Assembly (NCBI GenBank): GCA_002245135.1
Contig: NGBS01001160.1
Coordinates: 310,001 to 374,000 of the forward strand
DNA from: Proteromonas lacertae
Lineage: Eukaryota
Direction of reading: 5' to 3'
DNA: 64,000 nt
Made by a program: the position numbers and the translations under genes. A model generated the notes under the pieces. That model saw only the letters and a list, made by a program, of their open reading frames with translations. It was not told the DNA's origin and did not search any database. Shown one piece after another: positions 29,850-58,698 of the stretch; the first letter of the stretch is position 1; every line of letters starts with the position of its first letter.

Positions 29850-30920
29850 TTACATATCACAATGATATTTAACTACATCTAATGATTTTTCACTGTATGA
29901 GTGTATTATTGGAGGAATACTTCCATCAATATTATAAATAGTATTATTCACTGGTACTGCGTAAGATTTAACATCGAAACGAACTTCAAGATGTAAAGTC
30001 CAAGCAACACCAAAGCCATTTAAACTAACATAAAGAGGAAGAGTTGAAAAATCATATAAATACAACATTAGATTAAATAATGCTTGATCAGTAGTTTTAA
30101 AATATCTTTTTAACATAAAATTAACCAGTTTATTATAAAAATATGTTATTTCTTTTTCACTACCATAGATTGCACCTCCATTTATCAATGCATTATCTAA
30201 ATATTTATATGCATATTTAAATCCATATAACCATACTATATCATAATACGAATTAGCCATTTTAAAGTTGTATGTTTGTTCTACTAAATATACTCCTTCT
30301 CCTATATTCCAATCAAAGGGATTTGCTTGGAAATAGATATCTCTCACATCACAACTTAGATAATATTTGTATTTATAACCATATATATTTAACCAAATGT
30401 TGATTAAATACAATCTTATAGTTGAGTATTTATTATAATAATCTCCCTCATTTATGTGTGATAGAATATAAGAAGAATTTACTGGATATTTGGTATTATT
30501 TTGAGAATAATAAGGAAATGATTTTGTTAAATTAACATATTCTATTGAATATTTTCTCAAAAAATGAAAACTTTCTTCTTTACTATTTTCATCAATTAAC
30601 AATAAAACATCTCCTTTATAATATCTTCTTAAACTCATTATAAAATATTCATATTTATCATATTCATATCCTAAAGCTACACCTATCACAATTGAATTGT
30701 AAATGGCATTATATTTCCTTTCTTCATATTCTAAATATTTTGCATGCATTTTGCTTTCATTTTCACTTTGAATATGGATTTTTACTTCATCTTGAGTAGG
30801 ATATTTTGGTATTGAAAATTTGTATGGCTTTATTATTTCATATTCTACATATTCGTACAAATAACATTCAACTGGATAAATTATATAGAAAAAAATCAAA
30901 TATACATAAATAAATTGCAT
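29850..30920 (-). CDS. Secreted/type II GT-A-like glycosyltransferase (paralog of 57604..58698)
   Basis: Intronless, hydrophobic N-terminus, FIMSLRRYYKGD, CDVRDIYFQANPF (DxxD), NGGAIYG, TDQALFN, IIHSY. Confidence 0.75.
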   Translation of the reverse strand: MQFIYVYLIFFYIIYPVECYLYEYVEYEIIKPYKFSIPKYPTQDEVKIHIQSENESKMHAKYLEYEERKYNAIYNSIVIGVALGYEYDKYEYFIMSLRRYYKGDVLLLIDENSKEESFHFLRKYSIEYVNLTKSFPYYSQNNTKYPVNSSYILSHINEGDYYNKYSTIRLYLINIWLNIYGYKYKYYLSCDVRDIYFQANPFDWNIGEGVYLVEQTYNFKMANSYYDIVWLYGFKYAYKYLDNALINGGAIYGSEKEITYFYNKLVNFMLKRYFKTTDQALFNLMLYLYDFSTLPLYVSLNGFGVAWTLHLEVRFDVKSYAVPVNNTIYNIDGSIPPIIHSYSEKSLDVVKYHCDM

Positions 30921-31002
30921 TTTTAATAATTTATGAAACGGGTATATTTTTAATCATTAGTTTAAAGCCACATATAAATATATTAAATTATTAACAGACA
31001 GA

Positions 31003-32031
31003 TTAATTCATAAAATCATTTACTCTCTTTATTATAAAGTCTGTAAAATTATTCATGTCATTAAAATTTTCAACCATTTTCTTTTTGTTACAAGTAATAT
31101 TAATATTAATTTTGAATTTCAAATAATAGTTCCCATTTTCATGTGACACAAATGCATAATTTATCAATTTCAAATATCCAGAGAATCTTTTATCAGGATG
31201 TTTTCCTGATATATATATGACAGGTGTATTCATCGATATACAGGGTAAAATCGTGTGTAAATTACTTGTTAAAACCAAAGTTGATTTTTCATATATTTTT
31301 AATAATCTATATGCTTCATTGAATCTATCATAATGAGCGGTAGAATGTTTGAAATTCTTATTTAAATACATTATTTCACTAAAGTTGTAATACTTTAATA
31401 CTCTTTCATTCAAAAAATCCCATATTACATTTCCATCAATACAATTATCACAATTAACAATACATAATATTGTATCATTGATTTTATTTGCATAGTTATG
31501 ATATGATAAGCCCAACGTAAGTGTTAGACATCCACTAAAATATGCTTTGATTCCTAACGATTTTAGATAATTCATTGTTGATATATCTCTACAACCTATT
31601 GGTTCATGTTTTCTTAAATACCATAATGAAGAGTTGAATTTTTTATGTTGATTATCAATATGATAAGAAATATATAAAGGCATAATTCTCTCGGATGGAA
31701 AATATGTAGAATTTTGTAGATTCCACCATGCATTCATTATCATTTTAACTGGAGGACCATTATAATATCTAATAAAATCTCTATCAATATATATAACTTG
31801 CTTTCTACCACAAAAATATAACGAAGCAATAGATTGTATATAATCACCTAAATTTACATAATCAAATCCAGAATAAACAGAATCATACTCTTCTGTTTTA
31901 TCATCTCCATATTTGTATATCATTATTCCACAATATTCTTTGTTACTATCGCTATAATAATTTTCCTTACACTCAATACACTTTAGAATGATGAGAAAAA
32001 TGAGAATAAATTTTGAATGAAACGGATTCAT
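31003..32031 (-). CDS. Polysaccharide pyruvyltransferase family protein
   Basis: Intronless. NLGDYIQSIA, EPIGCRDISTM, YFSGCLTLTL and VLTSNLHTILPCISMNTPV match bacterial PS_pyruv_trans-type motifs. Signal-like N-terminus. Confidence 0.88.
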   Translation of the reverse strand: MNPFHSKFILIFLIILKCIECKENYYSDSNKEYCGIMIYKYGDDKTEEYDSVYSGFDYVNLGDYIQSIASLYFCGRKQVIYIDRDFIRYYNGPPVKMIMNAWWNLQNSTYFPSERIMPLYISYHIDNQHKKFNSSLWYLRKHEPIGCRDISTMNYLKSLGIKAYFSGCLTLTLGLSYHNYANKINDTILCIVNCDNCIDGNVIWDFLNERVLKYYNFSEIMYLNKNFKHSTAHYDRFNEAYRLLKIYEKSTLVLTSNLHTILPCISMNTPVIYISGKHPDKRFSGYLKLINYAFVSHENGNYYLKFKININITCNKKKMVENFNDMNNFTDFIIKRVNDFMN

Positions 32032-32040
32032 TTTATTGTA

Positions 32041-33267
32041 AATTGGGATGGCAATTTCATTCTATTCACTTTTGTTTTGGTTGTTTATATTCAATTTTAC
32101 ATACTGTTATAATGTTGACATTCCTGACAAGATTATAATAACAGCTGACTCAAATGTGTTTAAAATGGTAGAAAACTTCTATAATGAAGTGATATTGAAG
32201 TTTAAAGTTCCAAATTTTAGTGTGATAGTATGGAATAATTCATCCTATGAATTTTATAAAAAACACAAAATTCCAGTCGAAAACTCTCCAATTCCTACAG
32301 ATGATACAACAGCATATATTTAGTCATATGAAAAAACGTTTGTGATTAAATCAAAATTACGGAATGAGATAATCTTATATTATTTAAAACAAAATTTAAC
32401 AATATTAAACATGGATTCTGATTTATTCTTCTATAGAAATCCTTTAGAATTACTAAACTATATAAATGTTGATGATGATATAGTTTATCAATGTGATAAT
32501 CCTCCTTTGTGTAATGAGATGTGTTATGGATTATTTTATGTAAAACCATCAAAACCATCAATTAAACTATTTGAAAGAACAATAAATCTGGGAAAGATAA
32601 GTCTGCTTACTATGATTTATTCAGAACAACGATTGATGAATTTATTACTGAAATATGGTAGAATTGCAAATTTGAAATATTCAACGTTTTCTAAAGATGT
32701 TTTCCCTCAAGGTAATGAATATTTTGATGGTTTAGGAGTATTTGTAGATGATAAAAATATTCGAAATGTGATTGGATTTCATAATCATCATATTGCTGGT
32801 AGTCATTCCAAAATCTATCGATTTAAAGGAATTGGGAGTATGGAAGAATGATGAGAATGAATATTATTCATCAAAAACAAGAAAATATATAAAATATTCA
32901 ACAATAATTAAATCAAATTATAAAAGTGATTATGAATTATTGATGATATATTTAATGAATTTAGGAAAAGAGTTAAATCGAACAATAATATTTCCTAGAT
33001 TTAGTCATAGTATAAATAATGAAAGATATATTACAAATTTTATAAATTTTTGGAATATGAAATACTTTGAAGAAAGATATGGATTAAACTATCGAGAGAA
33101 TATATCTTTTTTGTTGTTTAATATAAATAAATAGAATAGTTTAGTTAATATTTGAAAGTATTTCTATTGAATGAATTAGTTCCAAAAGAAGTGAAAGAGA
33201 ATGTGAAAGAAATTTGTGATGAAAATGTAGATGAAATGAAATTATTAAATTCGTATTCAGTTTTATC
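32041..33267 (+). repeat. Direct repeat copy 1 (~1.2 kb), near-identical to 42244..43471
   Basis: Long identical stretches from aattggg upstream of the ATG to tcagttttatc. Confidence 0.95.
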
Positions 33268-33367
33268 AATAAATTATGTTATAAGAACTATCTCTGTTGA
33301 AGTAGTAAATAATTATATACATTATCTGTTGAAAGACAATATTTGGCAATATAGTTATATTTTCTAA
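32048..33367 (+). CDS. Nucleotide-diphospho-sugar transferase (GT77-like), copy 1; interrupted
   Basis: LNMDSDLFFYRNP (DxD), CYGLFY, SEQ, FHNH, KIYRFKELGVW. In-frame TAG at 32321-32323 and frameshift near 32828. Putative AT-AA intron 33102-33157. Confidence 0.75.
33102..33157 (+). other. Putative U12-type intron, AT-AA termini (56 nt)
   Basis: ATATCTTTT...TTAGTTAAT...GAAA|GTA joins REN to VFLLNELVP. The intron contains an in-frame stop. Confidence 0.7.
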
Positions 33368-33530
33368 ATGTTGTAATTTGTTGAGATAAAAATTGGCAGA
33401 AGGTATTTCTATTTATTTTAATCAAATAATGTTATTTATTAATAGTTTTTCATTCAATTTATTGAATTATTCATTTTTAAAACATTCTGAAACGGATAAT
33501 TTTTATTATAATTTGGAACTTTTTGTTTTA

Positions 33531-34413
33531 ATGAATTGCTTTGTTTGTATTACTCTATTTATATTAGTACAAGCAACAGATATGTGGATTCCAAATCCTG
33601 TTAATTATAGTATTATAACAGAAGTAGAAGTTAAAGATAGAGGTTATGAAGAAGTAGAATTTCTAGTTAAACTTACCGACACTATTTATGAATATGATAA
33701 AGATTCTCGAAATTACCCGATAATATTAGATGTAGGAGCAAATATAGGAAATTTCACAATAGGAGTTGCACCATTATATTCAAATGCCAAAATCTATTCA
33801 TTTGAGCCATTCAAGTTAAGTTTAGACGTTCTTGTAGATAGAACTAGAGATTATGCAAATGTTGAAGTTGTAAATGAAGCTGTGAGTAATATAACCATAA
33901 TAAATCAACCATTTTATTCATTAACACATTGGACAACTCCTAAAAATACAATATCGTCCTTATTAGATAATCAACCAGGATTTCGAGTTAGTGATTATGC
34001 CAACCTAACCACCTTATCTGATTTTATGAATAGAAAAAGTATAAATAAATATGTTGTAATGAAATATAGATATATCAAAGATATTTTTCATAAAAATAGA
34101 CACAGAAGGTTATGATGGAACAATATTGGAAAACAGTATGAATTTATTCTATGAACATAAAATCAAATATTTATATTTCGAATATGGTAGTATGTGGCCA
34201 GTAGTAAATCCAAATATAAATGTTTTTAGTATTGTAAATGAACTAAAATCAGCTGGATATAATCTTTATTATGAAAGTAAGAATCATTTCATTCCTTTAT
34301 ATGATAAAGTATATTTTAATTATATGAACTATTGTAACATTCTTGCAATTTTAAGAGGTGAATCATTTGAAAGAAAAATGATGAATCGCTTATGTAAATT
34401 CTGTAAATATTGA
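33531..34413 (+). CDS. FkbM-family (Methyltransf_21) SAM methyltransferase, secreted/type II
   Basis: ILDVGANIG, IYSFEP, and FIKIDTEGYD after a 31-nt intron (34039-34069), then YLYFEYG. Hydrophobic N-terminus. Confidence 0.88.
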
Positions 34414-34659: not shown

Positions 34660-35571
34660 ATGAATAAGAGGATATATTATTTGAAAGATGTTATAAATCC
34701 TGATGAGGAGGTGAGGCAGTCAGCTACGAAGAAGCTAAGAAATTTTATGGAAGTTACTAGTAGTTATTCTAGCCAGAGAAGAAGTAATGAAGATACGTGA
34801 AGATATATCAAGTGAATTAGTGACTCTTACTAATAGTAGTGATTATTATAAAAATCTAGGGGCTCTATGTGCAATTAAGGCATTATTGGATTTTTGTGAT
34901 CATTCCAACATTATTCCATATGCTAATTATGTTAAAAATATAATACTAAATGGAAATTCAACAACAGATCATCACTCAATAAATGAGTTTGCATGTGATG
35001 TATTGGGAGAACTTTTAACCAAATTCAGTGAGAATTTAATCGATTTTACTAATGAATACACACTTTCATCAATTCGTGATTTGAAAGAAGCAACAACTAA
35101 GAAAAAGCAGTATAATTCATTATGGCTTTTAAAGACATTTATTCAAAATTGCCCTTCACTATTCTATAACCAATTACCTTCATTTTTAAACAACATAACT
35201 AAACCATTAACGGATAATAATTCAGATATAAGAATAACTGCAGGAAAAACACTTTCATGTGTGGAAAAGCTACTAATTGAAAGACCAATCACAATAGAGA
35301 TAGAGAATTATTTCCAAATTATATACGATTTAGGATTAAACTTCAGTAATATAGCTTCATCATTAGAAATGACACATTCTTCATTATTAATATGGAAATG
35401 TCAAATAGAAAATAAAATACCAATTGTTTATAATCACTATGATATAATGTGTGATAATATATTGAAATATGCAGGTCATGCTAATCCACTGGTAAGAGAA
35501 ACAATTGTAGAATTAATTCCGTATTTGGCTGAATTAAATCCTGATTTGTTTTTAACTTATTATGAATCATC

Positions 35572-35610
<39 letters not shown>

Positions 35611-38600
35611 TATGTATATTTGAATAGTATTAATTTAATTATGTTTTCATTAAAGTATTCTGTTGATCCTACACTGATTTATATTTCATTTGGTAAATTG
35701 CTATTATTATTACCTATGAAATTACAACAACCAATGATGATAGAAAGAAAACCAAATATAAATGTTATAATAAAGTTTTTACAACATATTAAATCTGCAA
35801 TAAAAGAACGAAAGTAATATATATTATTATCATTATTGTTATTTAGATCATATTTTGAAGGAGCATTACAAAGTCTAGAGTTATTCAGTAAATCACCAGT
35901 ATCATCACAATATATTCATACTTTTATACCATTAGTATATATATATTTATTTATTTATTATCTATAGTTTACTGAATTACCTTTATCTACTGAATTAATA
36001 TCAACTCTCTGTGTAATAAGTACTAATATTCCATCTATCAAGAAAAGTATTGAAATGTTATTAATTGAAAGATTATCTCGTGTATTAGTACCTATTGATA
36101 TGAATAATCATTCAAAAATTGGATTTTCATCAAATTCTAACACTCAGAATGATATTTCTATTTGTTTGCATACTTTAAAGACATTTCCATTTAGTGAACT
36201 TGATAATATATTATACATGCAGAAAATACAACAATATTTAATATATAATGATTGGAAAATACGAAAATCAGCAGCTTTAGCTATTATAAAGTTGTATATA
36301 ATAGATAAAAACAGTGATAATCCAAGTCAAGATTTGAAAACAATCATGTTTAATATAATAAAATATTTAATTCCATTAGCTTGTACTGATCCAGAAGGTG
36401 ATATTAAATATGTGTTATTAAAAGAGTTAAACAATCCAAAATTCTACAGTTACTTAGTGCAAAGAGAATATAATATTCCTTTATTCCAAACAATCCAAGA
36501 TGATGATTTAACCGTCAGATTATTAGGTTTACATATTATTGAGAAATTACTACCAATTAATCCATTATATATGATCATACATATAAGAAGGTTATTACAT
36601 CAATTATCTTCAGAAATCCAATGTAATATTCAAGGATTAGAAAAAGAAACAACTATAACATTATTAGGAGAAATTATAAAGTCTTGTTCTGCTTATGTTC
36701 ATCCTTATTGTCAACCAATTTATTATATAATGACGAAACAGTTGGAAATATCTGAAAGAGGACCAACAATTACTGTAATATTGAATGTATTGGAGAATAT
36801 ATTGAAGATTGGATATGTTAATATATCTGATACATTTGAAGGATTATTCAGTAAAGCGATTGATTGTTTAAGGAAACAAATATCCAATGAAACAAGTGCA
36901 GCTGCTTTGAGAGTGATTATACAGATTACAATTAAAGAAAAGTATTTATAATTATTGTATTATATAATATTGTATAGTTTTGTAATAAAACCATATTACG
37001 ATTATGAAGACTTCTATCCGTTGTTATTGACAATAGCAAAAAGTTCAAAATATGATTTAAAATTAAGAACATTAGCTGTTACAGTATTAGGTAAGTTAGG
37101 TTTATTAGATCCATACAAATATTCATTATTAGTTGATAAACAAACAACAGAATCAATAGAAATTGATTATTTATCTGCAATATCACCAGTAAAGAAAGAA
37201 GCAATTTATACTGAAGTGATTATAAAGAGTTTATTGAAGTTATTAAAAGACAATTCAGTTTGTTCACATCATCATGAAGTGTTACAATCGTTTAGATTGA
37301 TATTTACAACGATGCCAAAAAGGTATATATAATATATATATTATATATTTACATATTAATAGATGTGAATCTTATTGGAATATTATATTTCCAGCATTAA
37401 TAGAGTTTGGTAATACATGTTTAGAATCAACAAGACCTCAACTATTCCAACTGTTTAGACATTTATTCGTTACAGAACCTATTGTTTCTAGAAGTTATTT
37501 ATCTTCACTGTATGAATTATTCTTTAAATATTGGAATAATACTATCAAAGAATGTTGTGAGTGTATAGTTGATACTTATAAAGTGTTACATTGTGATTTA
37601 TCCATTCATGCAAATAGAATTATTCAGTTATTACAAGAAACTTTAGAAAGTGATAATTCTCCAAACAGAATCACTTCTATTGAGTTATTAAACCTTATTC
37701 ATCCATTGATAAAGACATTATACTCCATAAATTGTGTTGTTTTATTATCACCATTGAAATACATTGAGATGAATATTAATTCATTAAAACCACCCTATTT
37801 AATAGCTCATTTAGGAGTAGTGAATGAATTATGTGAATATGAAGGAGTTGAAAGACATGCTATTTATATAGTTGAAGTGTTACTTACAATAATTGAGAAA
37901 ACAACTTCTAATGAAGTGGTAAAACAGGTAATGGAGTGTTTTATGCAATTAATTTATAATTTGAAAGAGAAATTTTATCTTTTTATTGATTCTATTGACA
38001 GAATATTAAAAAGAAGAAATATAATATACAAACCATATTCAGATTTAGCTGAAACAGTAAAACGAAGAGAAGTTATAATAAAACCACAATTAGTTAAACC
38101 AATACCAAGTGATACAGTATCTAAAAAAGAAACAAAGAAACAGAATCATTTCTTAAATTATCAAAAGTTATATGATGCATGGGTTTGTACTAATAAAGCT
38201 ACACCAGTATAATATATATATATAATATTTTATTTATTTATTCATTTTATAGTCTGATTTTACACATTGGTTAAAGAATGTTCATATGACATTTCTCTCT
38301 GAAAGTCCACAGCCATTATTTCGTTTATGTAGAATCAGTTATTATCCATTTGCAAGAGATATGTTTTTTCTTACATTTGATGCATGTTGGGATCAGTTAG
38401 ATATTCCGCAGAAACAACAATTTAGAGAACAAATAAAGTATCTATTTAGCTGTTCAACTGTACCAAATGATGTATTGATAAATTTATTATCTTTATTGGA
38501 GTATTTTAATAGAACAGATAGGGTATATTACTTTCTATATATTACTCTATTATATAGCAATTATTAATTGAACAGCAAACTATTGTTGATAAAGCAATTC

Positions 38601-38714
38601 AAGCCAAATCAAATGAAAAAGCAGTGAAATGTGCAGAGCAGTTATTCTTAGAGAATCATAATAATGTTGATTCATTAATATTTTTATATAATCAATTGAA
38701 TTATACTGATTCTG

Positions 38715-38752
<38 letters not shown>

Positions 38753-41700
38753 GATTGTTATTATCTATTTATAGGTTGGTGTATTGACAATATTAAAGAA
38801 ATCAAAGACAGAAATCCCAGAAAATGGAAAATGGTATGAGAAATTAGGTAAATGGGATGAAGCTTTAGCAATATATGAAGAAAACCAATTAAAATCCGTT
38901 TTAGATTTATCTGATACATTTGGTAGAATCAGATGTTTAGGTAATAAAGGAGAATATGCAAGAATCATCGAATTAGCAACTCCATTAAGAAATAAGATTA
39001 ATAATTTAGATGATAAACTGAGAAATGAATGGGTTGATACTTTACCTTATATTGTAGAGAGTTATTTATCAACTAATAATTTAAGTGAAGTTGATTATTA
39101 TGCTTCACAATTGTCAGATACAAATGTATAGTTATTATTTATTTATTATTGATATATAGATACATGATTTATACATTAAAGCTAGAATATCATTGTTTAA
39201 TAATGATTTAGATAATTCATTACATTACATTCAATTAACTCGTGAAAAATTAAGTAACAATTTGATACTTTCCTTTGAGAATTACAGTAGACTATACAGA
39301 TCATTGGAAGTGTTAATAATAGTATCAGAATTAGAAGAAGTAATAAAGTTCAAAAGATTTGCACAACACCAAGAAACAGGTGGTTCAGAAGGAGAAATAA
39401 ATCCATTAGTAGAAGAAAAGAAAGAATTATTAAAGACAGTTTGGCATGAAAGATTTGAGCATTTACAACCAAATACTGATTTATATTTTACACTATTAAA
39501 TATTCGTAAAGATATTATATCATATGATGAAAATTTGGATGAATGGTTGAAGTTAGTTTCTTGTTCAATGAGAGAGAAAAAAGATGCAATTACTGAATCT
39601 GTATTACAATATTTAGGTATTGGTAGAATTGATGATGAAGTGTTACATCCTAAGATATTATATACATATTATAAGTATCAATATTCACATGGTAATCAAG
39701 ACGCAGCTTGTATGTATTTGAAGGAATTAATTGAAAGTATTGATGAAGTTGAATACCCTAAAACTAAAGTATATTTGTTAAATATTATTATTTATATAGA
39801 TATCTTGTATTCATCGATATGTAAAATGGCATTTTTCAAACATCTCTGTGAATAATATTGAAGAATTATTAAACATGTCACAAACAGCAATTACATTAGA
39901 TCCTTCCATTCGAAAGGCTTGGCATAGGCTTGCCTTATTGTATTATAAATGTTTAGATGGTGATATAATCAGAGAATTGATATTAGATAAAAGTCAAACT
40001 GTTAGTAGTGCTATTCAATGTTTTTGTACTGCATTAAATTTAAGTGGACAAAAGAAAGATGCTATTACATTTCAAGATTTATTGAGATTAATATCATTGT
40101 GGTTTAAATATGGCAATAAAAGGAAAGTCCAAGAAGCTTTATCAGAGAATATAAAGAAAGTTGCATTAGAATTATGGCTAAATGTAATACCACAGTTAAT
40201 AGCAAGAATGTATGTGAAACAATCAAAAATCTCCAAATTTTTAAACGTTTTATTAGAAAATATTGGTGAGAAATATCCACAAGCAATTATCTATCCAATG
40301 TATGTAAGTAATTCATTAAATAAAGATAAAGATGACACGGATAGACAATATATCATAGATAATGTCTTAGAAACTATAAAAACACATCATTCGCAGTTAT
40401 ATCAAGAAAGTTCATTAGTTTCAAAGGAATTAATTCGTATAGCTGTTGTTTGGGGCGATATGTTATTAAGCGATTTTGATAAAGCATTAGGATTTGCTAA
40501 AGTTGGTAATTATGATAATATGATCAATACTTTCACTATGTTCTTTGATGCAACTTCCTCTAAACCACCAGAAACTACAACAGAGGTGTTATTTATGAAG
40601 AAATATGGAGAAAATATTGAAGAAATAAAGAAATTGTTGAATAAATATAAGCTGAATAGATCCAATGAGAATTTAGAGTTATTAAGAGCAAAAGCTTTGA
40701 CATTACTTCGTGCTGTAAGAGATAGTGAGAAGTATAGTGAATTTAGTTTACAACAAGTTTCACCTAACTTAGCAGAAGCTCATGATTTAGAATTATTAAT
40801 CCCAGTCACTTATTGTGAAATAAAAGAAAAAATCAAAATCAAAAGATTCTATCCAACAATCACAGTGATAAATTCAAAACAAAAACCAAGGAAATTCTTA
40901 ATAGAAGGTGATAATGGTAAATCATATGTATTCTTATTGAAAGGAAATGATGATTTAAGACAAGATGAAAGAGTGATGCAAGCTTTAGGGTTGGTGAATG
41001 AAATAATAGATAATACACGTGATACAATGCATCAAGGATTATTAATCCAAAGATATTCATGTACACCTTTATCTGCATCAGTTGGTATAGTTGAATGGAT
41101 TCATAATACAGATACACTAAATACATTATTATCTGATTATAGAAATGCACATGGAAATGGTATTTATGTAGAAGCAAATCTATTCAAAGATAGTTGTCCA
41201 CATTATGATACTGCTCCAATTATACAATTACTAGAAGCATTTGAATTCTCTCAATCAAGGACTAATGGAATGGAATTAGCGAATATTTTATGGTTAAAAA
41301 GTGAGTCATCTGAAATATGGGTTGAAAAGAGATTATTATATGTAAAGAGTTTAGCTGTAATGAGTATGGTTGGATATTTAATGGGAATGGGAGATAGACA
41401 TTTATCTAATATTATGTTAGATAGAAGATCAGGTAGAATATGTCATATTGATTTTGGTGATTGTTTTGAAACAGCTAGTCATCGTGAAAGATTTCCAGAA
41501 AAAGTTCCATTCAGATTGACCAGAATGTTAGTAAATTCAATGGAAGTGAAAAGTGTAGAAGGTTCTTATCGACTAACATGTGAAAGAGTAATGAAAGTAT
41601 TGAGAGATGGTCAGAATGTTGAATCATTAATGGCTTTATTAGAAGCATTTGTATATGATCCATTGATTAATTGGAGATTAGTACAAGAACCTAGATATAG

Positions 41701-42141
41701 AAATGATTCAGGTAATAATGAAGATAATGAAAATGATGGTAATATAAGTGATAGAGATTCTTCATTAAGTAAAGATTCATTTGCGTTTCATGAATTCTTT
41801 AATAATCCAAGTGATACTAGTACAGGAAGTACATTGAGTTATAGTTCTTTAACTTCGAGAAATAGAAGAATGTCAGTATCAGCTGCAGTATATGATGTTG
41901 CTGATGAAAAACGTATATTATATATATATATGATTTATGTTTATTTTATTAGATCATTCGTTGAAAGAGATGGATCATCAAGCTATAAAAGTGTTGAGTA
42001 GAATTCATTCAAAGTTGACAGGAACTGATTTTCCAAATGCAGGTTTTAGATGTTCAGAAACAAGTGGATAGATTAATAGAGGAAGCAACATCTCCAGTTA
42101 ATTTATGTCAATCTTATATTGGATGGTGTCCATTCTGGTAG
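34660..42141 (+). CDS. TOR: Target of rapamycin kinase (HEAT-FAT-FRB-PIKK-FATC)
   Basis: [78 protein letters not shown]. About 10 short introns. Apparent 1-nt frameshifts near 34775 and 42045. Confidence 0.95.
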
Positions 42142-42243: not shown

Positions 42244-43471
42244 AATTGGGATGACATTTTCATTCTATACTCTTTTGTTTTGGTTGTTTATATTTAATTT
42301 TACATACTGTTATAATGTTGACATTCCTGACAAGATTATAATAACAGCTGACTCAAATGTGTTTAAAATGGTAGAAAATTTCTATAATGAGGTGATATTG
42401 AAGTTTAAAGTTCCAAATTTTAGTGTAATAGTATGGAATAATTCATCATATGAGTTATATAAAAAACACAAAATTCCAGTCGAAAACTCTCCAATTCCTA
42501 CAGATGATATAACACCAACATATAATATTGATGATCCTAATCTAAATAGAAAGTTAAGACTTCGAAATGAGATAATCTTATATTATTTAAAACAAAATTT
42601 GACAATATTAAATATGGATTCTGATTTATTCTTCTATAGAAATCCTTTAGAATTACTAAACTATATAAATGTTGATGATGATATAGTATATCAATGTGAT
42701 AATCCTCCTTTGTGTAATGAGATGTGTTATGGATTATTTTATATAAAACCATCAAAACCATCAATCAAACTATTTGAAAGAACAATAAGATCTGGGAAAG
42801 ATAATTGCAGTTGTATGGTTTTATTCAGAACAACGATTGATGAATTTATTACTGAAATATGGTAGAATTGCAAATTTGAAATATTCAACGTTTTCTAAAG
42901 ATGTTTTCCCTCAAGGTAATGAATATTTTGATGGTTTAGGAGTATTTGTAGATGATAAAAATATTCGAAATGTGATTGGATTTCATAATCATCATACTGC
43001 TGGTAGTCATTCCAAAATCTATCGATTTAAAGAATTGGGAGTATGGAAGAATGATGAGAATGAATATTATTCTTCAAAAACAAGAAAATATATAAAATAT
43101 TCAACAATAATTAAATCAAATTATAAAAGTGATTATGAATTATTGATGATATATTTAATGAATTTAGGAAAAGAGTTAAATCGAACAATAATATTTCCTA
43201 GATTTAGTCATAGTATAAATAATGAAAGATATATTACAAATTTCTTAAATTTTTGGAATTTGAAATACTTTGAAGAAAGATATGGATTAAACTATCGAGA
43301 GAATATATCCTTTTTGTTGTTTAATATAAATAAATAGAATAGTTTAGTTAATATTTGAAAGTATTTCTATTGAATGAATTAGTTCCAAAAGAAGTGAAAG
43401 AGAATGTGAAAGAAATTTGTGATGAAAATGTAGATGAAAATGAAATTATTAAATTCGTATTCAGTTTTATC
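42244..43471 (+). repeat. Direct repeat copy 2
   Basis: Near-identical to 32041..33267. Confidence 0.95.
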
Positions 43472-43568
43472 TATAGATTGTATTCCAAAAGCTTTATCAA
43501 ATAAAACATTCAATGAATACAAACAATATTTTTATGAAGATTCATTTATTCAAGATAAATATGTATGA
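42251..43568 (+). CDS. Nucleotide-diphospho-sugar transferase (GT77-like), copy 2
   Basis: Near-identical to 32048..33367. Single-base frameshifts in T/A runs near 42820 and 43438. AT-AA intron 43305-43360. Confidence 0.78.
43305..43360 (+). other. Putative U12-type intron, AT-AA termini (56 nt)
   Basis: Perfect ATATCCTTT 5' site. Ends TTTGAAA before GTA TTT CTA. Confidence 0.75.
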
Positions 43569-43709
43569 TTTTATATAATATAGTAACCTAATTTATTATC
43601 ATTATTATTATTATTATTTGCTTATTCTCATCAAATCTTCTGTTAATTATCATATTAATAAAAATGTATATTTTCATTTTATGACATTGTCAATGTCAGA
43701 ATTATAAAA

Positions 43710-45733
43710 ATGAATATTTTGAAGTTTAGAAATGATTTTGTAAATGGATTGAGAGGTTATTCTATAATTTTAGTAATATTATTTCATTCTAACATAAAAG
43801 AATTTCATAATTGTTTTATTGGAGTAGATTTCACATTTTTAATATCAGGCTATTTATTAACAAAATCTTCATTATCAAATAAAGAGAATTTGAGAATATT
43901 TGATTTTTATCTAAAGAGATCACTTCGAATTTTGCCTTGTTATTGTATAGTATTATTTGTGATGGTTATGTATGAAATATATAAAGGAATAGTTGAATGG
44001 AGATATTTGAGTGAATATTTGTATAATAATATGTTTGTAAGTAATATTTATTTGAGTAAAGAAAAAGAAGATTATTTCATTTCAATTCATTCTTCTAATT
44101 TAATTCCATATTGGTCTTTATCAATCGAAATGCAATTTTATTTATTATTTCCATTGATATTATCCGTTAATAGAATGAATAATTATGTGTATATAATAAT
44201 GATAATGTTATTGCTATTCTTATCTTTGATGTATGAAATATATAATATTCATCAATATATTATTCTTTTTTAAGTCGATTATGGGAATTTATGTTAGGAA
44301 TAGTGGTGAGTGAATATAGAATGAAAAATGAAAAAGTGATAAATGTTGATATATTAACATTATTATTGATAATAATTCCCTTGTTAAATATAAAAATGAA
44401 TATAAGTATATATCGTTTAATAGAATTATTCATTTGTATGATAATGTTAAAATTTGGTGAAGAAAATAAAGAAGAAGAAGATGTTGAGAATGATAAAAGA
44501 AGAAGAAAGAGTATATTATTAGAGAATGAAATAATAAAATGGTTTGGAAAACATTCTTATATATTATACTTAATTCATTATCCAATTATTCAAAGTAAAT
44601 ACAATGTATATATAAAATTGTTATTGATGTTTGTGATAAGTATAATAATATATGAATTAATAGAGAATAAGATTGAGAAGCTGAAAATATCCAAGATAAA
44701 AAGATGGATGATAGTTATTCTTCCCTTATTACCTCAATTAATAATATATAATCGATTTAGAGAAAAGAATAATTCATTTTCATTATCCACATATAACAAT
44801 AACAATGACAATATATCCTATTTTGAATCTAATTGCAGTTCAATCTATCGATCAATACCACTCCATCTTCATTCACTAAACAAACCAATTAATTATTCAA
44901 ATATTATATTGTATGAATGTTATGTATTGAATTATGTTCTTATCTTAGAAACTTGTAACAATATGCCAATATATGATAATTCAAATGAATTAAACAATCG
45001 ACCAATAGCATATATCATTGGTGATTCATACAGTAAACAATGGATGGGAGTTGTTAAGAAATATTGTTATGAAAGAAATATCACTTTAATTCACACTAAT
45101 ATTCAAATAGAAAAGTTGAAGGAGCATTCAGTTGAAGATTTAATAATGAACAAGAAATTGTTATATGAATATCATTTTGATATGGTATTTATCGCATTTT
45201 CTACAAGATTACCATGTGCAATAAGTGGAAATGATTCAATGATGTTAATATTCAAAAAATTAATAAATATAATTAACACATTTGCAGATGAAATATTTGT
45301 ATTTCAAGGAATTCCATATAATCATGCACCAGGAAGTATTGAAATTGCTATTTGTCATACCTGTTTGTATGAAAGAAGAGAAACTTGTTATACAATACTA
45401 GGATATAATGCTAGTTATAATTCTCCATTTCCTTCACTTTCACTTCCAAATTATCATATAATAGATTTTTACAATCCTCAGTTGTGTTACAATAACATCT
45501 GTTCTTGTGTAATAAATAATAAGATGGTGTATGATCATTTATTTCACATAAATCCATTTATTTTGAGAATGTTTAATGATGAATTTAGTGATTATATGGA
45601 TAAAACAACAAAGAATAAATATAAAAAGATGAGAGAATATAATATGAAAGATAAAAAGGCATTATATACATATGGAGAATTATATCACCTTGATTGTATA
45701 GATGAGGAAGTATTGTATAATTTACAGTATTAG
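43710..45733 (+). CDS. AT3-SGNH O-acetyltransferase (OafA/OatA-like)
   Basis: NGLRGYSIILVILFH, GVDFTFLISGYL, FYLKRSLRILP, YWSLSIEMQFY, RLWEF, SYILYLIHYP. SGNH part has IGDSY and a late D..H. Intronless, one frameshift near 44255. Confidence 0.9.
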
Positions 45734-47869: not shown

Positions 47870-47940
47870 CAGATTAAAAAATTTCTAGAAGGCTTGTTGA
47901 TGGTTTGATTCAAAAACATTTTGAACAAAAAGTATTATAA

Positions 47941-50005
47941 TTAATATAAGATATTTAATATTATATCCTTAACTACTAAATACCAAATAATGAACTGTGA
48001 AAGACTTAATCCTGAAGTGAAAAATGACAAAAATCCGTTTAATATAAAGTGTCTTTGGTGCATTAATTCCTTATATGGCTTATACAACAATACCAGCTTC
48101 AATATTTGTGAAATGATAAAGAATATATTTCGCTTATACATATATTCTAAATGATACATTCTACTGAAAAACACAATGTATATTATTCCTGGAAGGTAAA
48201 TAGACAAATAATTCAATGAGTTGGTTATATTTGTATCTAAATCTTGAACAAAGTAACTATATTTAAACGGATAAAATTGTCCAAATATTGGAATTGATAT
48301 AGAGAATATCTTTTTACCATAATTTAGAATTGTAAATGGAAAAACTGGTTGAAATAACACAAAAACAAATCTAAATAATCTATATCTTGGATTTACATTG
48401 AATAATATTGTTCGATAGAAGTAATAATATAATAATGAGGAGATGATAGGAATATTACTTAAGAACAAAGGTAAACTTAAAATCTTAATAAATGAAGTAT
48501 GATATAATATCAAATCAACTTTATCAAATTCCAAATCACTTTTTAATTCACCTCTGCTTAGTAATACATAATACATAATGTTAGGAATAATATAGGATAA
48601 TAATAAAACAACAAAATACACTTTCAAATATGTATTTCTTAGTTGATTTGGTGTTCCAATAAGTTTAGTAAATTGAATAGCTTTTCCTTGTGGGAAGTAG
48701 ATATTTTCATCATATGATAATGTAAATAATTGAGTATCATTATTACACTTATTATCAATATTACACGAGATTATAGATATAGAATGATTATAAATAGAAT
48801 GATTAATACTATGATAGTAATCATAGTTTATTACATATAAGGGACTTTCATTGTTTTTATTATTGTTATATTGTATTAACTCATTATCAATATAAATATC
48901 AATAGATTTAATAGGTTTCATTGAAAATAAGAAAAATCTTATTTCATTATAATCAACTGTATGATTTGTATGTCTAAATGGGAATAATGCATTAGGTGGT
49001 GATGTAATTATAGTGATTGGACATTCATATGTTTCATTAAAAGAAATATCTTTAAATCCAATTCTTCTTTGATCAATAGCAATTATACGATAACTATACA
49101 AACATATATGTAATTATTATACTGTTTAATAAAACCCCAATCTAATGCAGCTAAATCCCAATTTGGATATTTATCTTTATTGTAATACTATTCATTAATA
49201 AAAGAACATTAAAATATACAAATAAATTCTTTCCAATTGTATCATGAACATGTCCAGATAATACCAAATCAATTTCATTCTTATTTATAACATCTCTTAA
49301 ATCTTCACTTCTATTTTCAGGTGATAAAGGATTTAAAAACATTATAGGATGATGAGTTAACATGACTTTAAAATCAGCTTGCTTGTTACTTATTTCATCT
49401 AATAATACACATTTATTATGATCGCTAGAACCATAAATACATAATGGTTCGATTGAACACTTTGGAAATGTGGAGAAAAATGTTGAAAATGCATATTTTG
49501 ATGATGGAGTGGTTATATCAAAACCATACATGATTGATCTATTATACTTTCCACTGATTGAATATTTGTCGAAATAACTGTTGTATTCTAATTCAGTAGT
49601 ATATGTATCATGATTACCACGAACATCAAACCAGAATTCTGGATTTGTCAAGTTGTTATCTTCTAATCCATTTCGATATAATTGCCATTGTGATTCAAGC
49701 TGAATATCTATAGATAATTAGATACTATTTAAATACTTGGCTCATAATTATCTTTACTATCACAACTATCTCCTGTGTTAATAACAAACTTTGGATTAAT
49801 CTTTGGAACTACTTCGCTTAAGAATTTTCGCCAGTAATTGTCTTGCTTATCTCCTGATACGCCTCTCAAATGTATATCTGAAATGTGAATAAACCAAAAA
49901 GAATCATCTTCATCTATTCACAATAATGCAATTGACAATACTCTTTAGGTGATAGTAATCATGGCACAAACAGAATGAGAAAAAGAAAAGCAATATAAAA
50001 TTCAT
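47941..50005 (-). CDS. TMEM62-like metallophosphoesterase (paralog 3, tandem with paralog 2)
   Basis: ATG at 50005 with signal peptide, FIHISDIH, NTGD, DVRGNHD, THHP, SGHVH. TM-rich C-terminus. Confidence 0.85.
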
Positions 50006-50132
50006 TACAGAAGAAATAGAATATTCTTTAAATAATGAAACGGATATATGTGTTTTTTATATTTCACCCTTTATAACACAACCTAATATACTACAAAAGT
50101 GTATAGAAGATGTAATTATAACTTTGTATTCC

Positions 50133-52157: not shown

Positions 52158-54327
52158 TTATAATCTTCTATTAAAGGTTGCCATTATCTCTCTAGCAGCA
52201 TTATTTGCTTTTGGAAGAAGAGATACCAGCATATTCTTCACATTGTTTTCATCAAATTTAGTTTTTACAATAGCTATAGAAATATACATAATTATTTTAT
52301 ACTATCAGATAATATATTATGTACAAATGTAAACATATATTCCAGAGTTTTTTCAGATGGACACGCCATGCAATATGACTTAATCTTCTTTATTACAATC
52401 TCAACCAACTGATTAGTATCAGACGTTTTATCTTTTGGTAATGGTGCTAATACAGGAGATAATACTCTACCACCACCATTAGTAATATTCATCAAAACAC
52501 CCCAAGCATTTTCACAAAATTGATCACTTCCATTCAATAGACTGGATATAATAACATCAATACCTCCATTATGATATACTTCATCTCTACAGGAAGTCTC
52601 TTCATGTGTACAATATAGCAACGAAGTAATTGCAGCTTCTGCTACTTTTTTATCACTATTTTGAACTAGTTTCAGCAATATTGGAATACCACCTACTTTA
52701 CGTAGTTCTCTTTGATTGGATATATTCATAAATAGACTATTCCTTAATGCTATTATATAATTAATATGTTTTATATCCGTTATGGATAATTGTTTTACTA
52801 ATACACTAATACCACTACATTGTCTAAAATGGTCTTGATTTTCTGGAGTTTTTCTCAATAAATTACCAAGCAAAGCAGCAGCATAATTGGATAATTTCTC
52901 ATTATTATTAGTAATCAAAGATGTAATAACAGAAATACCACCAACTTGACCTATTTCTACACAATTTTCATTTACAAAATTTGTTATATTACAAAGTGTT
53001 CCTGTACAATATAATCTGAGTTTATTATATCTATTATCATTTGGTGGACTGGATGTAATATATCGTAAAAGAGTAGTGATTCCACCTGCTGTTCTAACTG
53101 CAATCTGATTAGCTTCTACTTTTTGAACTCCATTCATTAATATACCTGAGATTAATTCTGCTAATTTCAAATGTGATGGTGGAATTAGTGATGATGTAGT
53201 TGATAATACACTTTCTGTTAAAGATATTAATAATTGCACTAAGGTTTGAATTCCATTAATTTCACATAATCTATCTTGATTCTTTTGTTCTACTACTGAT
53301 TGTAACAACATTTTAGCAGATTCTTCTCTTACAATTTTATCAGGCCATCTTATGAAGGATAATAATCGGTTTATTCCATTCTGATGCATTACACACTGTC
53401 TTAAATATAAATTCATACATGGTCTACCATATAATGATTTCTCTTGTGAATCTGATGATGTTTTGGGTGATAAATGTGTTTGTGATGACAATGTTGAATC
53501 ATCCATTTGAACAAATTTTAACCACAGTAATCTATCAGCTTCTTCTGATGTTAATACTCTATACCATTCATGATTCACTGCTTCTAATTGACAGATTGAT
53601 TCTGGAGGTAAATAATCAGCAATTTTTATTCTAATAAAAGCAGGAAATACTTCAATTGGATTGATAAATGTAAAACGTTCATAACAATATTTACATACTC
53701 TTTGCATTCTAGAAGTTGTCCTTCCATATCCTAATTCAGTTAGTGGATGTCTATATGATGTACACTTTGAACAATGTAATTGACCACATCCTCGACAATG
53801 ATGCCTTCGATGAGTAAAAGTGAAGGGTTCTTCACATACTACACAGTGATCCATGTAATTATCTGGAACCCATAGCGGTGCTGGTATGTGTGTGTTTAAT
53901 GAAGCAGATGGATCTGTCCGATTTATTAATCTTAGAGAAGAAGCTTCCATTGGAGTTAGACAATGTCTCTATGAATAAATATTAATAAATTAATTATATA
54001 CCTCCATTACAAAATATGGATAGATTACTGCTCTTGAAGGAAAATCAAGATTTGATTTTTTCATCATCTCATCTTCATCTATTCTACTATTTTTAGATAC
54101 ACAACGATAGCACACTCGTACTGGATTTTCATAACCAAGGCTAGGTAAAGGTGAATAACAATTTGAACATTTTCTACATACAATCTAATTTTAATATATT
54201 AATAGTATACTTCACCACAATTTCTACAATGATGCCGCCGATTTAGGAACGTAAATGAAGTATTACACATACTACACTGCTGAGTGTCATTATCTTGTAT
54301 CCAAGTAGGAATTTGGATTATGTTCAT
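52158..54327 (-). CDS. Tandem FYVE-FYVE + F-box + armadillo-repeat protein
   Basis: Exon 1 [16 protein letters not shown], second [21 protein letters not shown]-box-like [31 protein letters not shown] repeats (GGIxxL). Three short introns. Confidence 0.85.
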
Positions 54328-54874: not shown

Positions 54875-55508
54875 TTGTGCGCCGTTGTCATAAGTGGCCA
54901 TTTGTCAACCAGACACTTTTAAAACAAACTAAATGTATATTCTTACTTGTCTTGATGAAAAATTGTTACTTTTATACTTACTTTGTTATATGACCTACCT
55001 CTGCAGTATACTTTTTTGTTAATATAAATAGTTTGAATATTTGATGCCGTTTGTTTTCTAGAAATTTTTGAAGCAGAACTAAATGCATATTTAGCTAATA
55101 TAGACTGAAATACATTAGCTGAAATGATTAGAATGTAATAATTATTAAATCTTTCTATATAAAAAAGAAATGTAAAAAGTAGGCTTAAGTGAGGCTTGAT
55201 TATGTATTTTCTTTTTTCATTTTAAATGTCTTATGATCTACATTAAGTTGTTCTAATCATTTCAGCTAATGTATTTCAGTCTATATTAGCTAAATATGCA
55301 TTTATTCTGCTTCAAAAATTTCTAGAAAACAAACGGCTCAAATATTCAAACTATTTATATTAACAAAAAAGTATACTGCAGAGGTAGGTCATATAACAAA
55401 GTAAGTATAAAAGTAACAATTTTTCATCAAGACAAGTAAGAATATACATTTAGTTTGTTTTAAAAGTGTCTGGTAGACAAACGGCCAACTATGACAAACT
55501 GCGCACAA
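54875..55508. repeat. Long inverted repeat (arms 54875-55133 and 55251-55508, 117-nt spacer)
   Basis: The right arm is the reverse complement of the left. The core is perfect apart from two 1-nt bulges, and mismatches cluster in the outer ~35 nt. Confidence 0.97.
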
Positions 55509-56347
55509 CAATAGAAGATCATCAGGAACAATTTGATCATCTTAGGTACCAGTCTATTGTACATAATATCTGTACACTAGATCTCCAGTTTTTTCTATTC
55601 TAATCTCTCTATTTAGAGAGAATACTTGAAAACAAATAAAATAAACACAAGCCAGGTTTGAACATTTTTTCATGTTTTATAAAATTTGAGCACCTGCCTC
55701 CTATAGGAAGCTAGGTCTTATTTTTGTTAATTAATTAATAAACACTATTATTTTTTAAACTGTTTGACTTATTTACTATCTGAATAACTATCTTAAGCTC
55801 TATTTCAATCGTTTATCCCATAAAAACAATTTAACTAAATCATTAAGACATATTTATTTATAACTAACTGATAATTGAACCTTTTTCATAAAAAACAAAT
55901 CATTCAAGTAAATTTTGGCAATCTTGATATCTATTCGAGGAAGTCAACATATTTTACATCTCCATAGCTTCTACTATTGCTAAATTATCACCTTATTGAA
56001 CATAATTTACTTACATTTATTAAACTACTAGCCATTGGATAAGTTAAGAATTTAGAATTATCTACTTCTCGTTTTATAATCATGAATTTTGATAATTTGC
56101 TTACTAAATCATTTCTTATATCTACAACGAAGTTATCTCTATTGAATTGTAATTGATATACTTCTACTAATCTTTTCATATATTGTAAAACTACTTCTTT
56201 TATATTCAATTTACCTCTCATGATTTAGCTTTGAATATCTCAGCTTTTATAACCATTCTTTTACATCGATAGAAAATGTTTAAGTGAATAATGGAAGGCA
56301 CAATGAAAGGCACAAACAGTTCTTTATTCATCATCCAAATAAATTAA

Positions 56348-57555
56348 TTAACCTTTAAGATGATTTAAACTATATTCTAGGATAAATCCTATTTGTTTCA
56401 ATGACATTGTCATATTATCATTATTATGATTTTGAAAATAGGATATACATATCCATTATACAATGACCGATATAAAGTTGGCTTATTTTTAAACTTATAC
56501 TTATCATCATATCCTTCATCATATGTATTAGGATTAACATTATGAAATAATGAAAATAACAAGAAATGTTTATAATTTAATGAATAACTATAACACATAA
56601 AATCAGTTATAAAAAATGTTCCTATACATTCAATGATTAAACATTTTGATGATAAAATCCATATCATATTCGTTAAACCAGATCCATGAACACTTATTAT
56701 TATTTTAGATTTCATTATTGATTCAATTTGTTCTTTAGGGACTTTTATCTTCAAAATATATTTCATTGTAATTATATTTCATTGATTTGATCATTTCTTT
56801 TATCATCTCTAGATTCGTTATACTTCTGATTCTTCCTTTCACTTTTCGACTTATTATTGATATTAAATTTTCTTTTTCTTTTACATTTTCTTTATTTATT
56901 TTATGTATTTATCCTCATCTCGATATGTCGACCTTTATTATAATTACGAAATATTCCTACCAAATCACCAATTTGCACTTCGAATATAAATATGAACAGT
57001 TTTATAACATAATAAATGATTTTTGGATTTTCTTAATAGTTTAGATATTTCTGATTGAAATGATATCTTAAATGGTTTATTATAATTATTTATCATCATT
57101 TTCAACATCATATTATTATAGGGAATTGTAGATTGTGGATTAAAATCAGCCATTATAAGATGATTCATTGGAGGATATTTATTATCATTTTGAATATTAT
57201 ATAAAAACATATTATCCAAAAAATGAGATATCATTTGATTAACATGTGATGTTGTTAAATAAATTTCTTCATTTGAATATTCATAGGATGGATTTCCTAT
57301 CAGAAAATTCGGACCAAAAATAAATCTCCAATGATGATTATGTAAGTTATTTATTATTAAATTGTATTCATTCATTTCTTTTATTGACATTATTAATCTT
57401 CCCCAATAATCATCTTCTTTTCTTGTTATACAAATATTGTTAGCAGTTATCCAATAATTTCCAGATTCTTTTACCAAGTCTTCATGAAAATCAATTGAAC
57501 TATATTCACAGTATATATATTTAGAGAGAATGAGAAAAATCAATAAAATATTCAT
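56348..57555 (-). CDS. GT61/DUF563-like glycosyltransferase, frameshifted
   Basis: Signal peptide, HFLD, IISRK..R.ITN, FEDKSPKEQI, IISVHGSGLTNMIW, IIEC. At least three frameshifts (near 56970, 56738, 56435). Confidence 0.75.
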
Positions 57556-57603
57556 TTTAATCAAATCAAATCATGAAACGGATACATATTTAATTAAAAA
57601 GAA

Positions 57604-58698
57604 ATGTTAAATTTACGACTAATCTTTACATTATTTTTCATAACTTACTTAAAACCGCAAACTTCACTTTTTATTTTTAATTATTTGTTAGTTATATTGT
57701 TAAATGTAAAAAGAATAGAATGTAAAGAAATAGAAGTGTATGTTACTCCTCATAGGGAATTTAAGAAGTATGATGAAAAACTATATATTAGAAACAATAT
57801 ATCATATCTAAAATATGAATCTGATGAAATAAAATCAAAAGATTGTGTTGTGATATCTTTAGCTTATAGCTATACATATAAGGATATTAGCACATTTATT
57901 CTATCTCTTAGAAAGTATTATGAAGGTGACACTATTCTTTTCATAAAAGAAGAAGATTATTCTTCCTATTCTGAATATATTGATAAATATAAATTAGAAT
58001 TGATTAATATTACATATAATTCTCCATTTTATTCAAATAATAATTCGCTATACAAATTTAATCAATCAGAATTATCAGATATTCCACTTTATTCATACAA
58101 AAATTACTGGCCAACATTTCGTTGGTTCATTTTCGACAAATGGCTAAGTAAATATGGATATCTATATAAGTATTATTTAATTTGTGATGCAAGAGATGTA
58201 ATATTCCAAGACAATCCATTCAGATGGAATATTAGTGAAGGAATATATTTTGGTGAACAAACAAGAGGATTTGAAATTAGTCAAAATCAACCTAATACTG
58301 AATATATGTTTTATTACAAATATGGATATAAATATGTTGATAATCTATTATTAAATGCAGGAGTAATGTTTGGTAAAAGAAAGACAATAATTGATTTTTA
58401 TCAACAATTTACAGGTTTTTTAAGAGAAAGATATATAAATACAATTGATCAAGCAGCATTGAATTATTATCTATATTCATATGGATATAAACACTTTCCA
58501 GTGTATATATGTCAAAATGAAAATGGTCCAATTCGAACTTTGCATATAGATTTCATGCTAAATAAATCAAATGCTTATCCTAAAAGTGATAATTACATAT
58601 ACAATATAGATGGATCAAAACCTATGTTAATTCACCAATATGACAGAATGATTAATAAATATGAAGAATATATTAAATATCACACAAAAATAGTATAA
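57604..58698 (+). CDS. Secreted/type II GT-A-like glycosyltransferase (paralog of 29850..30920)
   Basis: Intronless. FILSLRKYYEGD, CDARDVIFQDNPF, NAGVMFG, IDQAALNY, LIHQYDR. Confidence 0.78.
   Translation: MLNLRLIFTLFFITYLKPQTSLFIFNYLLVILLNVKRIECKEIEVYVTPHREFKKYDEKLYIRNNISYLKYESDEIKSKDCVVISLAYSYTYKDISTFILSLRKYYEGDTILFIKEEDYSSYSEYIDKYKLELINITYNSPFYSNNNSLYKFNQSELSDIPLYSYKNYWPTFRWFIFDKWLSKYGYLYKYYLICDARDVIFQDNPFRWNISEGIYFGEQTRGFEISQNQPNTEYMFYYKYGYKYVDNLLLNAGVMFGKRKTIIDFYQQFTGFLRERYINTIDQAALNYYLYSYGYKHFPVYICQNENGPIRTLHIDFMLNKSNAYPKSDNYIYNIDGSKPMLIHQYDRMINKYEEYIKYHTKIV

Follow-up and report, generated by a model that had tools for sequence, protein, structure and literature searches.

Three blocks of glycan enzymes lie among intron-rich genes in a 64,000-nucleotide (nt) stretch of the Proteromonas lacertae genome (contig NGBS01001160.1, positions 310,001 to 374,000; hereafter the window), raising the question of whether this gut stramenopile carries a captured bacterial capsule locus or a cluster of its own making. 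The eight genes encode glycosyltransferases (GTs) of GT-A-fold, GT77-like and GT61 type, a polysaccharide pyruvyltransferase, an FkbM methyltransferase and an AT3-SGNH acyltransferase. The preferred reading, with a probability of roughly 0.6, is a birth-and-death cluster of secretory enzymes that likely decorate surface or secreted glycans and include one probable bacterial acquisition. The cluster would have arisen from old, expanded families through local duplication, gene conversion and decay, and its likeness to a capsule locus is one of chemistry only.

Identity and clustering of the glycan genes

The genes of the three blocks are as follows, with positions in the window and strand.

Block 1, 29850-34413, four genes
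29850..30920, minus strand: GT-A1, GT-A-fold glycosyltransferase, intact, intronless, 356 amino acids, N-terminal signal, D-x-R-D motif
31003..32031, minus strand: polysaccharide pyruvyltransferase-family gene, intact, intronless, 342 amino acids, N-terminal signal
32048..33367, plus strand: GT77-like copy a (GT77a), head-to-head with the pyruvyltransferase gene, TAG at 32321-32323, one-base shift near 32828
33531..34413, plus strand: FkbM-family methyltransferase, intact, 283 amino acids, N-terminal signal, 31-nt GT-AG intron at 34039-34069
Block 2, 42251-45733, two genes
42251..43568, plus strand: GT77-like copy b (GT77b), one-base shifts near 42789 and 43437
43710..45733, plus strand: AT3-SGNH O-acyltransferase, about 674 amino acids, one-base shift near 44245
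Block 3, 56348-58698, two genes
56348..57555, minus strand: GT61-family glycosyltransferase, about 403 amino acids, one-base shifts near 56965, 56905, 56730 and 56425
57604..58698, plus strand: GT-A2, intact, intronless paralogue of GT-A1, head-to-head with the GT61 gene

An earlier note on this DNA described eight such genes in blocks of four, two and two, all with signal or anchor segments, and this layout holds: seven of the eight carry a hydrophobic N-terminal segment, and AT3 is polytopic. Its description of the genes as intron-free or single-intron applies to the intact GT-A1, GT-A2 and pyruvyltransferase genes (intronless) and to FkbM (one ordinary intron), but not to GT77a, GT77b, AT3-SGNH and GT61, which are interrupted by frameshifts or a stop rather than by ordinary introns.

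Profile searches bear out most of the family assignments. The pyruvyltransferase matches PF04230 at 6e-14 (53 bits; cut-off, 25.3) and contains the motifs N-x-GDY-x-QS and CRD; its alignment finds no match in the PDB at E 0.1. The GT77-like pair matches PF03407 at 7e-13 and 8e-10 (49.5 and 39.6 bits; cut-off, 22), with DSD as the DxD motif, the label denoting this profile and motif as distinct from membership of CAZy family GT77. FkbM matches PF05050 at 5e-5 and TIGR01444 at 1.6e-8 and shows the D-x-G-A-N-x-G motif for binding S-adenosylmethionine (SAM); its 5' exon alone scores 35.1 bits against a cut-off of 37.7, and a plasmid search with FkbM gives no match. AT3-SGNH matches PF01757 at 3e-17 and PF19040 at 0.0035, and its ESM Atlas matches are AT3-SGNH clusters at 0.95, a nematode cluster included. 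Its AT3 domain retains R-X10-H, D39, RXXR and S112, so that most residues with a demonstrated essential role in OafA are present, is about 35 to 39% identical to bacterial AT3 domains and is followed by an SGNH domain with GDS and His. Eukaryotic versions of this architecture exist (PMC2824669). The GT61 call falls just below its threshold (PF04577 at 2e-5, 25.3 bits against 27, in one fragment only), with an HGSGLTN motif present, and for neither GT-A does a Pfam profile exceed its cut-off, the fold being assigned from a model of GT-A1. The family assignments, taken with the N-terminal signals and the motifs that are kept, support the earlier proposal of a secretory-pathway glycan toolkit, and the products likely act on surface or secreted glycans.

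The GT-A1 model, built from a 129-row alignment in which D194 is invariant, reaches a predicted local distance difference test score of 88 and a predicted template modelling score of 0.87. It superposes on GT6 (VIA Z 18.3, root-mean-square deviation 3.4, 237 aligned) and on the glycosyltransferase domain of LH3 (Z 18.1, root-mean-square deviation 2.7, 210 aligned), both at 9 to 15% sequence identity, and Foldseek also matches it to GT-A folds; no PDB sequence match lies below E 0.12. Since GT6 and LH3 match equally well, the GT6 match is no evidence of blood-group mimicry. GT-A1 and GT-A2 are 36 to 40% identical, and each has relatives of its own (at 75 to 77% and 70% identity, respectively). 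The expansion comprises 27 clusters (50% level) at E<=1e-30, and 35 rows form one clade with a Shimodaira-Hasegawa-like approximate likelihood ratio test (SH-aLRT) support of 100, which places the two genes in a large lineage-specific clade. A hydrophobic N terminus occurs in 27 of 32 clade members compared to 4 of 45 other homologues. Among the more distant homologues, signals are mostly absent, and one of the three checked bears an archaeal name; a metagenome scan adds five distant loci. An ancient transfer of the GT-A clade is possible, and a lateral origin is plausible for both this clade and AT3-SGNH.

Clustering of the glycan genes exceeds chance within the window. At most three runs for eight labelled genes among 32 to 36 window genes have a P of 0.003 to 0.005, in a window picked after the fact. 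Six independent families among 32 genes give P 2e-6 to 4e-5 at a background of 1.2 to 2%, a rough estimate from published family counts, and P about 0.09 at 10%.

Origin of the gene families

The notion that the genes were laterally seeded finds support in one of them, the pyruvyltransferase. Its nearest relatives are two clusters at 60 to 61% identity, followed by others at 29 to 48%. An 81-row tree, which took in 32 of 80 bacterial loci, 24 of 120 listed protein matches and 24 of 27 viral loci, unites the window sequence with P0001 and P0002 in a clade (support, 100/100) within a 31-row group (99/95). All 14 named members of this group are bacterial and, by their titles, mostly metagenome-assembled genomes from the gut, among them Clostridia, Gastranaerophilales, Enterousia and Akkermansia. 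The 24 viral rows group apart (97/89), and a tree without viruses agrees on the bacterial nesting. The gene was likely taken from bacteria, as this nesting suggests.

Several further pyruvyltransferases deserve mention. P0011, P0016, P0017 and P0018 are AT-rich sequences nested among small-genome Clostridia (100/99); three of them have long hydrophobic N termini, possibly marking a second transfer into another gut eukaryote. The nearest clostridial enzymes (L004:4869-5885, P0004, P0009 and P0013-P0015) show signal-like N termini, and those of L004 and L002 adjoin GT8 genes in genomes of 0.8 to 1.0 Mb. Six contigs with a close relative (P0123-P0133) measure 4600 to 4609 bases, compared to 4.56 kb for block 1, and may represent a repeat-bounded orthologous island.

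The enzyme classes match those of bacterial capsule loci and of Megavirinae clusters, the genes are intron-poor, and in five of the eight closest bacterial loci looked at, genes of GT8, GT2, GT1, Stealth or the rhamnose pathway are adjacent or fused. These features would suit the capture of a bacterial capsule or O-antigen operon, or of a giant-virus glyco-cluster, as a unit that was later split. However, neither the 80 bacterial nor the 27 viral loci of pyruvyltransferases, scanned over up to 5 kb on each side, contain a homologue of another island gene. The viral pyruvyltransferases branch apart, viral GT-A homologues are 19 to 30% identical, and GT77 contains a probable U12 intron. The GC content at third codon positions (GC3) is host-like, at 0.14 to 0.20 in the glycan genes compared to 0.12 to 0.22 in other window genes. 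A scan of 50 open reading frames (ORFs) of the window shows no Wzx/Wzy, flippase, polymerase, ABC exporter or nucleotide-sugar synthesis gene, and the glycan genes lie on both strands, with TOR and other host genes between the blocks. Capture as a unit is thereby largely refuted and very improbable, and with it fails the analogy to capsule and O-antigen loci drawn in the earlier note.

Most of the bacterial-looking genes belong instead to old stramenopile families, and the claim of lateral seeding lacks support for GT77, GT61 and FkbM. The origin of these three was judged on published InterPro counts (PMC12129017, Table S5) and one ESM Atlas query, in which a viral cluster at 0.94 is followed by haptophyte PF03407 clusters at 0.93. 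In the published table, the free-living Cafeteria has 4 FkbM, 7 GT61, 3 GT77-like, 2 AT3 and 0 pyruvyltransferase genes, and all ten genomes contain GT61 (7 to 38) and GT77-like genes (3 to 20). Proteromonas lacertae is listed with 105 BTB, 70 FkbM, 6 AT3, 1 AT3-type SGNH and 1 pyruvyltransferase; the eight Blastocystis genomes have 0 to 1 BTB and none of the other four. The family profile of the window is nearer to Proteromonas than to these Blastocystis genomes. For FkbM and GT61, the families' presence in Cafeteria is joined by a GC3 equal to that of the host, and for GT77, by the intron as well.

The introns in question, each probably of U12 type, are as follows.

33102..33157, plus strand: AT-AA intron of GT77a, 56 nt
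43305-43360, plus strand: corresponding intron of GT77b
23836-23903, plus strand: AT-AC intron of the Kelch gene, 68 nt, joined frame open
17498-17554, plus strand: AT-AA intron of the DGAT gene, 57 nt, joined frame open

None of 873 open GT-AG joins bridges the break common to both GT77 copies, which is bridged by the 56-nt AT-AA intron with its U12-type donor. The pattern sought, a ATATCCTTT-type donor, a TTCCTTAAY-like branch site and non-GT-AG ends, is present in the GT77 introns and recurs in the Kelch and DGAT introns, two of these three distinct cases ending AT-AA. U12 introns are documented in Blastocystis (PMC5608401). The GT77 intron is thus a probable minor-spliceosome intron, which argues for a long residence of the gene in a eukaryote.

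Frame breaks and the GT77-like pair

In total, the four interrupted glycan genes carry eight one-base shifts and one stop: one shift plus the TAG in GT77a, two shifts in GT77b, one in AT3 and four in GT61. Eight of about ten unexplained shifts in the window thus fall in the glycan genes, which at 9.8 kb make up 19% of the coding DNA (P 1e-5 for 8/9 and, calculated by hand, about 5e-5 for 8/10). The other two, near 16680 and 16770, are probable one-base shifts at the 3' end of a BTB-domain gene (14766-16860, plus strand) and the sole such breaks seen in 41.5 kb of non-glycan coding DNA, so that all of them sit in expanded families. Three further parser skips outside the glycan genes have other causes, namely, the border between two genes, sequence ahead of an ATG and an intron that the parser overlooked. 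Each of the eight indels can be read as the gain or loss of one base in a short run; where the paralogue fixes the placement, as it does for three, the indel extends the run.

Phase variation was rejected as the cause, the runs at the breaks being only 2 to 5 bases long, and ordinary GT-AG introns were rejected for AT3, GT61 and GT77. A 44-nt GT-AG intron in AT3 would remove a conserved loop and scores 129 bits compared to 153 for the frameshift reading, which fares better against six of six bacterial homologues. There is no clear enrichment of Blastocystis-type TGTTTGTT ends, with 10 sites compared to about 5 to 6 expected by hand estimate.

For the broken genes, the choice lies between recent death of the copies and sequence errors left in multicopy genes. 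Errors are favored by the run-extension indels, by GT61 frames without a nonsense codon despite four shifts and by too few nonsynonymous changes in GT77; decay is favored by the TAG in GT77a and by the clean TOR gene between the blocks. On balance, the indels are slightly more likely than not to be sequence errors. Decay could also be the rule, with intron-poor glycan duplicates landing here, dying and forming a cluster without joint function. The concentration of shifts in glycan genes and in BTB, likewise an expanded family, the one nonsense codon and a foldback-like element beside block 3 would fit such a graveyard. Four genes are intact, however, three of them with intact relatives at 60 to 77% identity in other samples, and in the GT77 pair, indels are in excess relative to nonsynonymous changes (3 vs 8), unlike neutral decay, which leaves this account distinctly unlikely.

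The two GT77 genes are duplicates of near-identical sequence and do not represent independent modules. They lie 10.2 kb apart, flanking FkbM and TOR, and 1216 of 1294 aligned columns (94%) are identical. Five collinear blocks contain 13 synonymous and 8 nonsynonymous differences; the resulting pN/pS, the ratio of nonsynonymous to synonymous differences per site, is 0.14 (Fisher p 1e-5), showing purifying selection on the pair. Identity is 27 to 30 of 30 per bin except in two internal patches (14/30 near 32320 and 22/30 near 32590) and in the 30-residue tails, whose resemblance is remote but still reflects homology (0 of 5000 shuffles). One patch lies ahead of the DxD motif and the other immediately ahead of the EQ motif. 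Regions near these motifs shape specificity in GT-A enzymes, and the mosaic thus points to loops that likely determine it here. The simplest reading is that the genes are old paralogues that gene conversion has homogenized, the patches being either unconverted or imported.

Several of these observations would also suit a coordinated coat-modification system in which all eight genes are intact and co-expressed, serve one decorated coat glycan and have their GT77 patches shuffled by conversion. The indels confined to short runs, the open GT61 frames, the low pN/pS and the residues kept by AT3 are in line with it. The ATGs of the head-to-head pairs pyruvyltransferase/GT77a and GT61/GT-A2 are 16 and 48 nt apart, compared to 97, 106 and 489 nt in three other head-to-head pairs of the window, and pyruvyltransferase and AT3-type SGNH, single-copy in Proteromonas by the published table, yet lie here within 12 kb of each other. 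The TAG in GT77a, however, is a substitution, the TOR gene between the blocks stays unbroken over about 6.9 kb, and the pyruvyltransferase lacks a PEP-binding arginine (PEP, phosphoenolpyruvate). Such a fully working system is therefore unlikely.

Glycan decoration, known systems and surroundings

Under the preferred birth-and-death reading, the enzymes would act in the Golgi lumen, where GT-A, GT77-like and GT61 proteins would add sugars from nucleotide-sugar donors and the pyruvyltransferase would cap a terminal hexose using imported PEP, like Pvg1p of fission yeast. FkbM would O-methylate with SAM, AT3 would take acetyl groups from acetyl-CoA in the cytosol and transfer them through the membrane to its own SGNH domain, and the head-to-head pairs may share promoters. 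A bolder version, itself rather improbable, has a co-regulated cluster making a pyruvylated, O-acetylated and O-methylated capsule-like coat that GT77 gene conversion varies, amounting to antigenic variation at the level of the glycan; it would include a gut-bacterial pyruvyltransferase clade with its PEP-binding Arg changed to Asn and conversion that spares or swaps the loops beside the DxD and EQ motifs.

Several points weigh against the birth-and-death reading. Four of the eight glycan genes are broken as sequenced, which together with the old stramenopile ancestry of most bacterial-looking genes calls for caution. In the R-L/I-H motif of the pyruvyltransferase, His is kept, but Arg is replaced by Asn in the window enzyme and in 18 of 18 close relatives; 77 of 80 bacterial loci with a name and 113 of 118 further homologues have this Arg, and pyruvylation by the window enzyme is uncertain without it. 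The pyruvyltransferase sits on a long branch (0.72), with an ambiguous exact sister. In the SGNH domain, Asp stands one place earlier than expected (D-x3-H vs DxxH). The background density in the clustering estimate comes from published counts for other genomes. Finally, a 52-row TOR tree joins the window TOR to oomycetes, the sole named stramenopiles sampled (SH-aLRT 99), on a long branch of 2.5 and in the absence of any Blastocystis or Proteromonas sequence from the tree.

Pvg1p of Schizosaccharomyces pombe (PMC6801904) is likewise a eukaryotic PF04230 enzyme with an N-terminal membrane segment, and the window enzyme would similarly use luminal PEP and give surface glycans a negative charge. 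It differs in belonging to another, bacterial subfamily, in being clustered with other glycan genes and in its Asn at the R-L-H Arg; R337 of Pvg1p is a modelled PEP contact, its equivalence being suggested by the motif. The Salmonella enzymes OafA and OafB (PMC7448272) share the two-domain AT3-SGNH architecture and the retained residues, including an E325-like one, whereas the window gene is eukaryotic and shows NC in place of the GG motif, the D-x3-H and a frame break. In the Megavirinae (PMC10117803), glycosyltransferases are combined with pyruvyl-, methyl- and acetyltransferases for a surface glycan; these clusters are viral and include nucleotide-sugar synthesis, and the window homologues branch apart from theirs.

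Among protists, Blastocystis and Proteromonas show multicopy GT61 and nucleotide-diphospho-sugar transferases throughout, short introns, U12 introns and documented bacterial gene transfer (PMC12129017, PMC5608401), and Blastocystis is known to bear a surface coat of carbohydrate (PMC6115916). Blastocystis differs in the absence of FkbM, AT3 and pyruvyltransferase from the eight genomes counted above, and the excerpts of PMC12129017 and PMC5608401 contain no mention of a clustering or function of these families. The UDP-glycosyltransferases of trypanosomatids (PMC5853035) are a lineage-specific, surface-decorating expansion in host-associated protists that proceeds by arrays, transposition and recombination; one family is involved there, compared to six here, including non-sugar decorating enzymes, and no telomere is seen in the window.

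Lineage-specific expansions of surface glycosyltransferases and bacterial transfers into gut stramenopiles are already known. A literature search that left subscription papers (such as a Blastocystis transfer screen from 2017 and the paper on the Proteromonas genome) outside its scope shows no paper describing such a cluster, nor the pyruvyltransferase clade, the Arg-to-Asn change or the GT77 mosaic, on which the Blastocystis transfer lists outside the search may bear. Pyruvylated glycans are on record in few eukaryotes, namely, yeast, algae, a sponge and a sea hare (PMC6801904). The surface-coat chemistry and biosynthesis of gut stramenopiles are largely uncharted, and the intact pyruvyltransferase, FkbM and GT-A genes offer concrete, assayable candidates.

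The surroundings are eukaryotic, with a GC content of about 0.21 to 0.37 per kb. In 21 non-glycan spans with 41.5 kb of coding DNA, spliced parsing gives 61 short GT-AG introns, most of 25 to 58 nt, and the genes include CFAP20, kinesin, mitochondrial EF-Ts, BTB, DGAT, TOR, Kelch, three TMEM62-like genes and Sel1. Two features border the blocks.

34660..42141, plus strand: TOR kinase between blocks 1 and 2, 12 short GT-AG introns, frame unbroken
54885..55497, no strand: nested inverted repeat beside block 3, 160-nt arms (98%) and 54-nt arms (100%)

The 120 matches listed for TOR include no close relative, nearly all lying at about 38 to 43% identity. A genome scan with a single protein gives no match, and the metagenome scan brings up no relative of the host. 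The inverted repeat spans about 610 bp, ends in short inverted termini, has no Rfam match and is possibly a foldback element or one resembling a miniature inverted-repeat transposable element; a short unexplained ORF follows at 55988-56224 (minus strand). The TMEM62-like genes encode calcineurin-type phosphoesterases (11251-13087, plus strand; 45813-47869 and 47941-49717, minus strand). The latter two stand in tandem directly after block 2, and a luminal phosphoesterase could share the secretory pathway of the glycans. The window also contains a tRNA-Ile(TAT) gene at 27901-27974 (minus strand) and a FYVE-F-box-like-Armadillo gene at 52292-53968 (minus strand), with a second FYVE-like segment upstream, at about 54050-54280 (minus strand).

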